Of a DNA stretch of 64,000 nt, positions 7,659 to 8,396 are shown in pieces. The stretch lies in assembly GCF_055900595.2 (NCBI RefSeq), contig NZ_CM148325.1; one strand, written 5' to 3'. The translations under genes were made by a program, and so were the position numbers. Below the pieces are notes generated by a model. It was not told the DNA's origin. It ran no database searches and saw nothing but the letters and a program-made list of their open reading frames with translations. Each line of letters starts with the position of its first letter. Position 1 is the stretch's first letter.

Positions 7659-8396
7659 ATGAAAAAGGTTATTGCGGTTTCAGCGCTTGCAATGGCAGGC
7701 ATGTTTTCGGCCCAGACTCTGGCTGATGAGAGCAAAACAGGCTTTTATGTGACCGGTAAAGCAGGTGCTTCTGTTATGTCACTTTCAGAGCAACGTTTCG
7801 TTGATGGTGAAGGGGCATGGGCGGATAAATATAAAGGCGGTGACAAAAGTGATACGGTTTTTGGCGCAGGCCTTGCGGTGGGATACGATTTTTATCAGCA
7901 CTACAATGTGCCGGTGCGTACTGAAGTGGAGTTTTATGGCCGCGGTAACGCTGAATCAAAATATCGTCTGAGTTATTGGGAAAGTGTCGGTGGTGCCGAG
8001 TTTGATGATGCACAGAACAAGCTCAGTGTAAACACGCTGATGCTTAATGCGTATTATGATTTCAGAAACAGCAGTGCATTCACGCCATGGATATCTGCTG
8101 GTCTGGGTTATGCTCGGGTTCATCATAAAACTTCGTACATATATACCGATAACAGTCCGGCAGGCAGTGAAGTATATTCAGCTTCAGCGTCAAAATACGA
8201 AAATAACCTGGCATGGAGCCTTGGTGTCGGTGTTAAATACGATGTGACGCAGGATTTCAGCCTTGACCTCAGTTACCGGTATCTGGATGCAGGGGATTCC
8301 ACTCTGACTTATAAAGATGAGGATGGCGCTAAATATAAATCCTCTGTTGATGTCAGAAGTAATGAGTTTATGTTAGGTGCAACATATAACTTCTGA
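7659..8396 (+). CDS. Small outer-membrane beta-barrel protein (OMP_b-brl / opacity-adhesin-like family) with signal peptide
   Basis: Start chosen at MKKVIAVSALAMAGMFSAQTLA, 9-12 nt after a GGAG; alternating amphipathic strands and terminal aromatic residue (…GATYNF). Resemblance to the Tia/Hek(Hra) adhesin family is from memory and unverified. Confidence 0.65.
   Translation: MKKVIAVSALAMAGMFSAQTLADESKTGFYVTGKAGASVMSLSEQRFVDGEGAWADKYKGGDKSDTVFGAGLAVGYDFYQHYNVPVRTEVEFYGRGNAESKYRLSYWESVGGAEFDDAQNKLSVNTLMLNAYYDFRNSSAFTPWISAGLGYARVHHKTSYIYTDNSPAGSEVYSASASKYENNLAWSLGVGVKYDVTQDFSLDLSYRYLDAGDSTLTYKDEDGAKYKSSVDVRSNEFMLGATYNF

Follow-up and report, generated by a model that had tools for sequence, protein, structure and literature searches.

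The window analysed here, a stretch of 64,000 nt from contig NZ_CM148325.1, carries a genomic island in which a gene of 245 codons lies between a divergent, frameshifted hns paralog and a regulator with HTH, WYL and WCX domains (Table 1). We read this gene, with a probability of roughly 0.88, as an allele of hra2, an accessory outer-membrane adhesin of the Escherichia coli Hra family (Hra1/Hek/Hes, Tia and Hra2, to which PagN is distantly related), and it is referred to as hra2 below. An earlier note on this DNA had described the gene as island-encoded and had placed it between these two neighbours. Both points held, the first through the tRNA-Phe gene pheV with its adjacent integrase and a GC content of 45.1% in the island compared with 51.1% in the rest of the window, the second through the H-NS N-terminal domain encoded on the minus strand on one side and the WYL gene on the plus strand on the other. 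Beyond the tRNA gene lie yqgA and speC (APEC O2-211).

Table 1. Coordinates of hra2, its upstream elements and the neighbouring island genes in the window.
Feature	Position	Strand	Details
hns paralog, frameshifted, divergent	6866..7340	-	Pfam Histone_HNS_N, 1.1e-19 on ORF 6966-7340; C-terminal part in another frame
Candidate OxyR/Dam operator	7528..7579	.	GATC at 7533, 7546, 7555 and 7564; half-sites ATCGATTTTACCGAT (7534-7548) and ATCGGTTGTAACCAT (7565-7579)
Predicted sigma-70 promoter	7580..7609	+	-35 TTTACC (7580-7585), 18-nt spacer, -10 TAAAAT (7604-7609); consensus scan 9/12
Shine-Dalgarno-like GGAG	7646..7649	+	9 nt upstream of ATG 7659; abuts ATG 7650
hra2 coding sequence	7659..8396	+	245 codons, stop 8394-8396 included in the interval; ORF reading
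Signal-peptide coding part	7659..7724	+	MKKVIAVSALAMAGMFSAQTLA, predicted cleavage before DESK
HTH-WYL-WCX regulator ('deoR' of JF808724)	8817..9713	+	Pfam WYL, WCX and HTH_DeoR; PADLOC WYL models
Phosphoethanolamine transferase	13125..14798	+	Pfam Sulfatase, 1.1e-50; NCBIfam phosphoethanolamine transferase models all under their cut-offs
Island boundary	16447..17889	-	Tyrosine integrase 16447-17667 (Pfam Phage_integrase, Arm-DNA-bind_3, Phage_int_M); tRNA-Phe pheV 17814-17889 (ARAGORN)

The open reading frame was confirmed as a genuine gene. The RefSeq coding sequence WP_001389182.1 of APEC O2-211 has identical coordinates. The exact protein is recorded on at least 1000 contigs, which places the reading frame far beyond chance. 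A second in-frame ATG at 7650 would give the 248-residue form found in GenBank JF808724. The start at 7659 was favoured because the Shine-Dalgarno-like GGAG, which is invariant across the upstream alignments of hra1, hra2, tia and hes, stands 9 nt before this codon and directly abuts the ATG at 7650; RefSeq has also chosen 7659. The N-terminus, read as MKKVIAVSALAMAGMFSAQTLA/DE, is built like a Sec signal peptide, residues 1-20 are disordered in the AlphaFold model (pLDDT below 50), and conservation across the family alignment sets in at residue 23. The C-terminus (...LGATYNF) ends in phenylalanine, so that the signal peptide and the terminal aromatic residue which the earlier note had read from the sequence are both present.

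For APEC O2-211, RefSeq annotates the hns paralog as a pseudogene with a frameshift, and an intact hns paralog of 153 residues adjoins tia in strain SC422. Downstream of hra2, the two ORFs which follow the WYL regulator match the PADLOC candidate defence families PDC-M09A and PDC-M40B, and the regulator probably belongs with these two genes rather than with hra2. Control of hra2 by the WYL protein was considered and disfavoured on account of these defence-family matches and because hra1, hes and other homologs have no such regulator adjacent. The phosphoethanolamine transferase gene, by comparison, directly follows hra1, hes and other homologs in other islands, hra1 and hes likewise standing beside a pheV integrase and this transferase. 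In SC422 and other strains tia occupies the very slot of hra2, in a module which runs hns, outer-membrane protein, WYL regulator, two unknown genes, phosphoethanolamine transferase, integrase and tRNA-Phe. The flanks in the window are 95-100% identical to this tia-bearing module, compared with 64-70% for the barrel gene itself. Judged from these alignments, hra2 and tia are cassettes that replace each other within a single conserved module of the island, and mosaics of the two occur naturally (P0003 and P0008).

Identification of the gene was based on alignment with hra2 of enteroaggregative E. coli (EAEC) strain 60A, the strain in which the gene was reportedly characterised (Mancini et al. 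2011, J Bacteriol 193:4813). Positions 7650-8396 of the window aligned end to end with 60A hra2 (JF808724.1:342-1088; protein AEK70958), which is of equal length (747 nt from the ATG at 7650), with 19 substitutions in 747 nt, or approximately 97.5% nucleotide identity. The supplement of Montero et al. 2017 (PMC5539235) contains two printings of the 60A sequence, which was available to us as a machine reading of the PDF containing insertions, deletions and miscalls; only substitutions common to both printings were counted, and because the reading contains errors the difference is given as 19-21 nt. A clean RefSeq allele from FDAARGOS_1252 departs from the 60A reads at only 2 positions; against the window it shows 21 nucleotide differences and 6 changed residues out of 248. 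At the protein level the window and 60A-type alleles are separated by some 5-6 residues (approximately 98% identity), namely A12T, S28N, A40V, G64S, V113A and V193A in the 248-residue numbering. The header of JF808724 names a partial 'deoR' after hra2, in agreement with the HTH_DeoR/WYL gene of the window. The two alleles differ in their surroundings, the window gene lying in a pheV island beside the scr sucrose genes whereas the 60A-type allele of FDAARGOS_1252 has a pap operon as its neighbour and occupies a different integration site.

The earlier note had likened the product to the Tia/Hek (Hra) group of adhesins and invasins, and this likeness was borne out since the gene matches hra2, a known member of that family. 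Over the mature protein, identity reached 67% with a Tia proxy and 63% with a Hek proxy, 65% with Hes, 64% with Hra1 of strain 042 and 34% with PagN. The proxies (P0102 for Tia, P0145/P0144 for Hek) were picked by 5-mer matching to machine-read sequences, as the canonical tia (U20318) was used as a machine reading only and the genome of the hek strain RS218 was absent from the collection. The value for Hes equals the published Hes-Hra2 identity of 65% (PMC5539235). A tblastn search found no second Hra-family member elsewhere in the window. The assignment is correct but ordinary, hra2 being a gene that was already known.

The identity to these paralogs is unevenly spread. Compared with Tia, Hra1 and Hes, the segments that form the barrel and its turns reach 80-88% identity and the four predicted surface hairpins 44-49%, a pattern of loop divergence which has also been published for Hes (PMC5539235). 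A barrel core common to the paralogs together with divergent loops would fit a binding specificity encoded in the loops. Tia of ETEC H10407 (U20318, Q46760) belongs to the same family and has the same predicted fold, with barrel segments 88% identical to those of the window product but surface hairpins only 41-58% identical. Hra1, Hek and Hes (from EAEC 042, NMEC RS218 and the LAA island of LEE-negative STEC) are family members at 63-65% identity, with loops L2 and L3 only 32-37% identical. PagN of Salmonella enterica, an adhesin/invasin encoded by a PhoP-activated core Salmonella gene, is a homologous eight-stranded barrel in which the identity (34-37%) is concentrated in the membrane strands and falls to 4-21% in the surface hairpins.

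Reportedly, 60A Hra2 confers adherence but neither autoaggregation, as Hra1/Hek do, nor invasion, as Tia does. In the published record Hra2 takes part in adhesion and Tia in invasion and adhesion, and the activities attributed to Hes, Hra1, Hek and Tia are haemagglutination, autoaggregation, adhesion or invasion (PMC5539235). Both autoaggregation and haemagglutination have been published for Hra1, Hek and Hes (PMC5539235), and neither activity is reported for Hra2. By analogy, surface localisation and adhesion of the window allele would follow from the published work on strain 60A (PMC5539235). It is improbable, although of the alternatives it fares best, that the window allele behaves otherwise within the same family, as a Tia-like invasin or a Hra1/Hek-like autoagglutinin or haemagglutinin rather than a plain adhesin of the 60A type. 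Relatives at 86-90% identity already differ in phenotype (PMC5539235), mosaics of hra2 and tia occur in nature, and two of the six substitutions relative to the 60A type (G64S and V113A) fall within predicted surface hairpins. However, both replacements (G to S, V to A) are conservative, and the four hairpins remain 96-100% identical to those of the 60A type, compared with only 32-65% to those of Tia, Hra1 or Hek.

To the earlier note the protein was a small outer-membrane beta-barrel, and structure prediction agreed. An AlphaFold2 model built from a 41-sequence alignment (mean pLDDT 88.2, pTM 0.80) contained eight long antiparallel strands, and Foldseek matched it to small eight-stranded barrels in the PDB, including the OmpA transmembrane domain, NspA, Ail, OmpW, OmpX and Legionella porin III, with probability 1.0 and a TM-score of up to 0.79 on the target. 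The adhesins NspA and Ail and Opa-type proteins were among the top matches, OprG was found beside OmpW, and no solved structure of a Hra-family protein was among the PDB matches. The product is of the same predicted fold class as these solved barrels (the OmpA domain, NspA, Ail, OmpX, OmpW, Opa60 and the Legionella Dot/Icm porin III), from which it differs by an identity of only 13-22% and by much longer extracellular hairpins. We confidently predict an integral outer-membrane beta-barrel of eight strands with four long external loops.

Of the two profiles which the earlier note had proposed, Pfam OMP_b-brl (PF13505) was passed with 74.5 bits against a cut-off of 28.7, residues 9-245 covering profile positions 2-175 of 175, whereas Ail/Lom (PF06316) gave a partial match of 14.4 bits against a cut-off of 23 and failed. 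The best NCBIfam match, the rickettsial adhesin Adr (NF052636), scored 96.6 bits against a cut-off of 210, which makes Adr a distant homolog only, and PorG scored below its curated cut-off as well; Ail/Lom, OmpW, Adr and PorG were all rejected because their scores fell under curated cut-offs. Nor did the product fit a housekeeping general porin, the assignment which the earlier note had set against its own proposal. Such a porin is a 16-stranded trimer encoded by a core gene, whereas here an eight-stranded barrel is predicted from an accessory gene, borne on the pheV island and found in 411 of 5,426 complete genomes.

We consider it very unlikely that the main selective role of the protein is something other than adhesion, either serum resistance or complement evasion of the kind known from Ail, Rck and PagC, or a surface target under selection by phages or colicins, an option that would account for loop variants turning over like cassettes. 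The fold is common to Ail and OmpX, the loops are strongly divergent while barrel and flanks are conserved, alleles are exchanged at one locus, and candidate anti-phage genes lie directly downstream. Against this, the Ail/Lom profile stayed under its cut-off, the published phenotype of every tested family member is of the adhesion type (PMC5539235), and loop diversification would be equally expected of adhesins under immune or host-receptor selection. Ranked last, and likewise very unlikely, is a small channel or housekeeping barrel, of the OmpW type or another, rather than an adhesin. This reading is implied by 'OmpW family outer membrane protein', the current name in RefSeq, and by the labels 'OmpW family' or 'porin family' in several sources, and a Pfam OmpW match (32.5 bits, cut-off 24) together with OmpW and OprG among the fold matches speaks for it. 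However, the Pfam OmpW match covers only residues 128-245, or half of the protein, the NCBIfam OmpW equivalog reached 28.8 bits against a cut-off of 287 with no full-length match, the product is 64-98% identical to experimentally studied adhesins, and the gene is island-borne and missing from over 90% of the complete genomes of E. coli.

With hra2 itself already known, the fresh lead at this locus is confined to the region upstream of it. The predicted sigma-70 promoter belongs to a block which is almost invariant in the upstream regions of hra2, tia, hra1 and hes, and immediately before it lies the sole cluster of four GATC sites within the window. Four GATC sites in 45 bp were reached somewhere in 64 kb in 31 of 500 shuffles, so the cluster alone is weak evidence, and the case for an operator was built on similarity to known operators and on conservation across homologs rather than on the GATC count. 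The element is identical at 23 of 28 positions to the GATC-II/III core of agn43 (maximum of 20 in 200 shuffles). Its best matches in a phage database were the gin/com-mom intergenic operators of Mu-like phages, among which the mom regions of D108 and SfMu agreed at 31-32 of 44 positions; three GATC line up in this alignment, and a further half-site follows 31 bp downstream. Two OxyR-like half-sites, each matching at 8 of 10 positions, lie 31 bp apart and overlap the GATC sites at 7533, 7546 and 7564, and no other such pair occurs in the 64 kb.

The operators of agn43 (flu), Mu mom and Salmonella gtr have in common with the element a GATC pair 13 bp apart inside a ATCGnTnnnAnCGAT half-site, and 13-bp GATC pairs inside OxyR half-sites have been described (PMC2909390). 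The arrangement found here, GATC sites inside OxyR-like half-sites next to a promoter, is that of the agn43, gtr and Mu mom class; the candidate operator lies upstream of the predicted -35 element as in gtr and mom, in contrast to agn43, where the site is downstream of the start site. Among homologs, tia has the same upstream GATC cluster as hra2, hra1 keeps the GATC sites, and distant homologs have the GATC triplet conserved in their upstream DNA; hes keeps only one upstream GATC, PagN has no such cluster, and 60A-type hra2 and hra1 variants lack 9 bp of the candidate operator. In the literature searched we found no paper linking Hra-family genes to OxyR or Dam, and a match to 'hek' in a Dam paper referred to HEK-293 cells, not to the Hek adhesin.

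The upstream element suggests that hra2 may be under epigenetic control. More broadly, and as a tentative proposal to which we would give somewhat less than even odds, hra2, tia, hra1 and distant homologs in Escherichia and Salmonella may carry a conserved OxyR/Dam operator (3-4 GATC, of which a pair 13 bp apart falls in one OxyR half-site, with another half-site at a distance of 31 bp as in Mu mom) directly upstream of the promoter and may be epigenetically switched adhesins. If the operator is functional, small barrel adhesins would form a new class of phase-variable or redox- or methylation-gated surface proteins, beside Ag43, Pap-type fimbriae and Gtr, and this could account for the heterogeneity of EAEC, ETEC and ExPEC in adherence and autoaggregation. 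The element offers a concrete hypothesis on the regulation of the Hra adhesin family.

From the sequence and the model, the precursor would be exported through Sec with removal of a 22-residue signal peptide, after which some 223 residues of mature protein (in the class of 25 kDa) would be inserted by Bam as a monomeric eight-stranded barrel, from which four long beta-hairpin loops would project beyond the membrane. These loops may mediate attachment to epithelial cells, as published for the 60A allele. Expression would probably be driven by the conserved sigma-70 promoter and may be gated by the candidate OxyR/Dam-type operator directly upstream of it. Set against this picture are the frequent silencing of island genes and the pseudogene status of the neighbouring hns paralog. 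Binding to heparan-sulfate proteoglycans has been reported for Hek, Tia and PagN but cannot be assumed for Hra2 because the loops differ, and to our knowledge no receptor for Hra2 has been described.

The 411 genomes with a hra2-type gene (defined as identity of at least 95%) represent approximately 7.6% of the complete E. coli genomes. The window allele belongs to a group at 99% or more with 163 genomes, and a further 248 genomes fall in the band of 95-99%, from which sampled alleles were approximately 97% identical and of the 60A type. The original report of hra2 is said not to have detected the gene in its screen of diarrhoeagenic isolates, and set against that result the present frequency suggests that hra2 has probably been under-counted as a virulence marker. 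Little changes for hra2 itself, although a gene which RefSeq calls 'outer membrane protein', 'porin family' or, misleadingly, 'OmpW family' can be given the name hra2 and an adhesin function backed by the literature. The exchange of hra2 and tia cassettes and their mosaics bear on how 'hra' and 'tia' are typed by PCR and in silico. Carriers of hra2-type genes include avian, porcine, bovine and human isolates.

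The open reading frame of the barrel gene lies where the earlier note had placed it, at 7659–8396 (Table), and the signal peptide and terminal aromatic residue described there were both present, the N-terminus (MKKVIAVSALAMAGMFSAQTLA/DE) being of signal-peptide form by sequence and the protein ending in ...TYNF. Starting instead at another in-frame ATG, at 7650, would lengthen the N-terminus by MIE (7650–8396, 747 nt). Since the GGAG at 7646–7649 stands 9 nt before ATG 7659 but directly abuts ATG 7650, we consider 7659 the likelier start; for the gene of APEC O2-211 (WP_001389182.1), which is identical, the RefSeq start is equivalent to 7659.

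Close relatives of the protein were confined to Escherichia in database searches, those at 67–69% identity carrying the label 'invasion outer membrane protein Tia', some of those at 60–66% the name Hek. The Hra family comprises Hra1, Hra2, Tia, Hek and the new member Hes (Montero et al. 2017, PMC5539235). The hra2 sequence of the enteroaggregative E. coli strain 60A was taken from two printings (FASTA and Clustal) in the supplement of that paper, and when these machine-read texts, which contain errors, were aligned with window 7650–8396 (equal length, 747 nt) they had 19 substitutions in common, of which five are non-synonymous. Of 5,426 complete E. coli genomes, 411 (7.6%) carried an hra2-type gene at 95% identity or more in a CDS search. 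The alleles fell into two groups, one at 99% identity or more (n = 163) and one at 95–99% (n = 248), the sampled records of the latter being mostly at about 97% and of 60A type. An allele from this second group, that of FDAARGOS_1252 (WP_001398114.1), differed from the 60A reads at 2 positions; relative to the window it has 21 nucleotide differences and 6 amino-acid changes in 248 residues (A12T, S28N, A40V, G64S, V113A, V193A). Judged by its alignment to the 60A printings and by the FDAARGOS_1252 comparison, the window gene is an hra2 allele with approximately 97.5% DNA and 98% protein identity to the characterised 60A gene, which bears out the Tia/Hek(Hra) affiliation that the earlier note had guessed. 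The regulator at 8817 (HTH_DeoR and WYL by Pfam) is the 'deoR' of the GenBank hra2 entry. As hra2 has been described and functionally tested in another strain, the gene is already known; what is left of value is a corrected annotation (its RefSeq names are limited to 'outer membrane protein', 'porin family' and 'OmpW family'), a prevalence figure, the relationship of the hra2 and tia cassettes and a testable OxyR/Dam hypothesis.

Both OMP_b-brl and Ail/Lom had been named as families for a profile search. The Pfam OMP_b-brl model covered the entire protein at 74.5 bits (cut-off 28.7) and Ail_Lom remained below its cut-off (14.4 vs. 23). None of the NCBIfam models reached cut-off, the top one being the rickettsial adhesin Adr (96.6 vs. 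210). The RefSeq name 'OmpW family' is unsupported by the OmpW models, as the NCBIfam equivalog scored 28.8 against a cut-off of 287 and the Pfam OmpW match was confined to the C-terminal half of the protein. An AlphaFold2 model built from a family alignment of 41 sequences (mean pLDDT 88.2, pTM 0.80, residues 1–20 disordered) contained eight long antiparallel strands, and the barrel proposed earlier is thus predicted to be eight-stranded. Foldseek matched the model to 8-stranded barrels in the PDB at 13–22% identity (Legionella porin III, the OmpA transmembrane domain, NspA, Ail, OmpW, OprG and OmpX), while a PDB sequence search returned weak matches to Opa60 and the same Legionella porin and nothing else; neither search found a solved structure of the Hra family.

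Over the mature protein, identity was 67% to Tia, 65% to Hes, 64% to Hra1, 63% to Hek and 34% to PagN of Salmonella (37% in the search), Tia and Hek being proxies picked by 5-mer agreement with printed sequences. The Hra1 and Tia values agree with those reportedly given for Hra2 by Mancini et al. in 2011, namely 64% to Hra1 and 68% to Tia. The Hra1 sequence of EAEC 042 and the Hes sequence of STEC 94-3024 were taken at the coordinates of the PMC5539235 supplement, and the published Hes–Hra2 identity (Montero et al., PMC5539235) is equal to the 65% obtained here. When the protein was divided by the AlphaFold2 model into membrane and turn segments and extracellular hairpins, the former were 80–88% identical to Tia, Hra1 and Hes and the four hairpins 44–49% identical, with L2 and L3 least conserved; against the 60A type the hairpins were 96–100% identical. 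Hra2 'participates in adhesion', haemagglutination and autoaggregation are also properties of Hra1 and Hek, invasion is a property of Tia and Hek, and Hes confers adherence, aggregation and biofilm without invasion (PMC5539235). The loops of such barrels contact surfaces of the host or of neighbouring cells (PMC6605025). Hek and PagN are reported to bind proteoglycans, a property that is not transferable to Hra2 because the loops differ. Family membership, a predicted barrel with four long hairpins, a divergence concentrated in the loops and an accessory, island-borne status are established here. With hairpins nearly as in 60A, the window allele would act as a loop-mediated accessory adhesin.

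The 1.3 kb surrounding the barrel gene is 100% identical in APEC O2-211 and ten further complete E. coli chromosomes. The tRNA-Phe is identified as pheV by yqgA and speC, which come next in APEC O2-211. Next to pheV, on the side of the window start, lie a tyrosine integrase and a TPR protein; the phosphoethanolamine transferase and a small ORF come after these, then genes for two unknown proteins and the HTH-WYL-WCX regulator, and finally the barrel gene, an hns paralog in divergent orientation and the scr sucrose regulon (a partial kinase gene, porin, IIBC transporter, sucrose-6-phosphate hydrolase and LacI-type repressor). Both claimed neighbours, the hns paralog and the WYL regulator, were recognised by Pfam. 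GC content was 45.1% in the island and 51.1% in the remaining window. Farther out on the island, APEC O2-211 carries a truncated hsdM and an hsdS. The gap between the TPR gene and the integrase (approx. 15986–16446) is 28 bp longer in the window than in APEC O2-211, so that the window need not derive from that strain even though the hra2 region is identical; coordinates derived from comparison locus L001 shift by 28 from this gap onward.

Coordinates of features in the window and of transferases paired with Hra-family barrels at comparison loci
Feature	Position	Strand	Remarks
scr sucrose PTS regulon	1–6314		on same island as hra2
hns paralog	6866–7340	-	frameshifted; N-terminal domain ORF stops at 6966, DNA-binding part in different frame
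ATATCGATCGATTTTACCGATCGATATGATCACATCGATCGGTT	7528–7571		directly 5' of promoter; GATC at 7533, 7546, 7555, 7564
Predicted promoter	-35 TTTACC at 7580; -10 TAAAAT at 7604
hra2 ORF	ATG 7659 to stop 8394–8396	+	245 aa, read from sequence
Phosphoethanolamine transferase	13125–14798		Sulfatase-family
tRNA-Phe	17814–17889	-	single copy in window
Paired transferase, L002	3983–5482
Paired transferase, L003	7826–9328
Paired transferase, L009	2369–3714
Paired transferase, L013	3920–5422
Paired transferase, L019	3925–5451

In strain SC422 the slot held by hra2 in the window is occupied by tia. The module is the same one, running from hns through the barrel gene, the WYL regulator, two unknown genes and a small ORF to the phosphoethanolamine transferase, the integrase and tRNA-Phe, and the hns paralog adjoining tia is intact (153 aa). 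Alignment of window 7162–14832 with a tia module (L006, 7524–15191) gave 95–100% identity in the flanks and 64–70% in the gene body, homology beginning within the hns paralog at about 7162. On this alignment hra2 and tia are alternative cassettes of one conserved island module, and two family proteins (P0003 and P0008) are natural tia/hra2 mosaics; both cassettes and mosaics bear on the typing of 'hra' and 'tia' by PCR or in silico. A pheV integrase also adjoins hra1 (042) and hes (LAA island). In the human isolate FDAARGOS_1252 (L005, 3714–12747) the 60A-type hra2 module lies directly 3' of a complete pap operon with papG-II, and the island integrase adjoins glnH-dps rather than pheV, from which we infer that the module moves between integration sites and virulence contexts. 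Carriers of hra2-type genes were isolated from poultry, pigs, cattle, dogs, humans and water, and the protein cluster includes E. marmotae members and one multi-genus RefSeq entry. The original report is said not to have detected hra2 in its screen of diarrhoeagenic isolates. A 100% identical protein is encoded at 4281–5015 of CP057032.1. This record, 62 kb long and submitted as an E. coli plasmid, could be a mobilised copy of the module or a mislabelled chromosomal fragment.

The gene directly 3' of the barrel gene encodes a phosphoethanolamine transferase for hra1 and hes, for a copy on an IncF plasmid and for homologs in Salmonella and in a 53%-identical E. coli group, which suggests that barrel and transferase form a conserved two-gene surface-modification/adhesin unit; the transferase scored far under all EptA, CptA and MCR cut-offs. 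The window has the WYL regulator and two further genes (359 and 523 aa) between barrel gene and transferase. These two genes matched PADLOC candidate defence families (PDC-M09A, 5e-22; PDC-M40B, 5e-42), the second being 'cobalamin adenosyltransferase' in RefSeq for some strains. Window 8817–12459 appears to be a candidate anti-phage cassette under WYL control that has been inserted between hra2 and the transferase. A dedicated hra2 regulator is the less likely role for the WYL protein, since the barrel–transferase pairing is direct elsewhere and is split here by this regulator together with the two PADLOC-matching genes.

Approximately 130 bp 5' of the start codon, including the predicted promoter, are conserved in hra2, tia, hra1 and hes. 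The cluster of four GATC sites directly 5' of the predicted promoter is the sole one in the window, and its density was reached somewhere in 64 kb by 31 of 500 shuffles; density alone is not rare, and the sequence-level evidence is stronger. In MG1655 the OxyR/Dam switch of agn43 (flu) has a GATC-II/III core with which the element agreed at 23 of 28 positions, against 18 for the next best place in the window and a 200-shuffle maximum of 20. When 71 bp were compared by blastn with 50,697 phage genomes, the best matches were Mu-like phages (E 0.2–2), at the gin 3' end immediately 5' of com-mom. Ungapped comparison with the D108 and SfMu mom regions gave 31–32 of 44 positions, with three GATC sites in register (offsets 0, +13, +31). 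Dam and OxyR govern mom transcription (PMC3378877; PMC2909390), and the OxyR half-sites of gtr contain GATC pairs at 13-bp spacing (PMC2909390). Scoring with the pattern ATAGnTnnnAnCTAT gave two 8/10 OxyR-like half-sites at 7534 and 7565, 31 bp apart and the sole such pair in 64 kb; D108 mom has the same spacing, whereas that of agn43 is 32 bp.

A literature search that lacked key primary papers found none that connects the Hra family to Dam or OxyR, so that a prior description is possible. Among the upstream regions compared, the GATC triplet (13 + 9 bp spacing) is absent 5' of the 53%-identity group, the Providencia homolog and pagN, and hes and one further group have a reduced form. The element is also conserved 5' of hra1 and tia, and the triplet is kept, at approx. 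-110 to -88, 5' of two distant homologs, one in an E. coli group (72% identity, unrelated context) and one in Salmonella (51%), in both of which the remaining upstream region has diverged. We put a methylation-sensitive regulatory site at slightly below even odds (roughly 0.4–0.5), and the element is a candidate epigenetic switch for the entire adhesin family.
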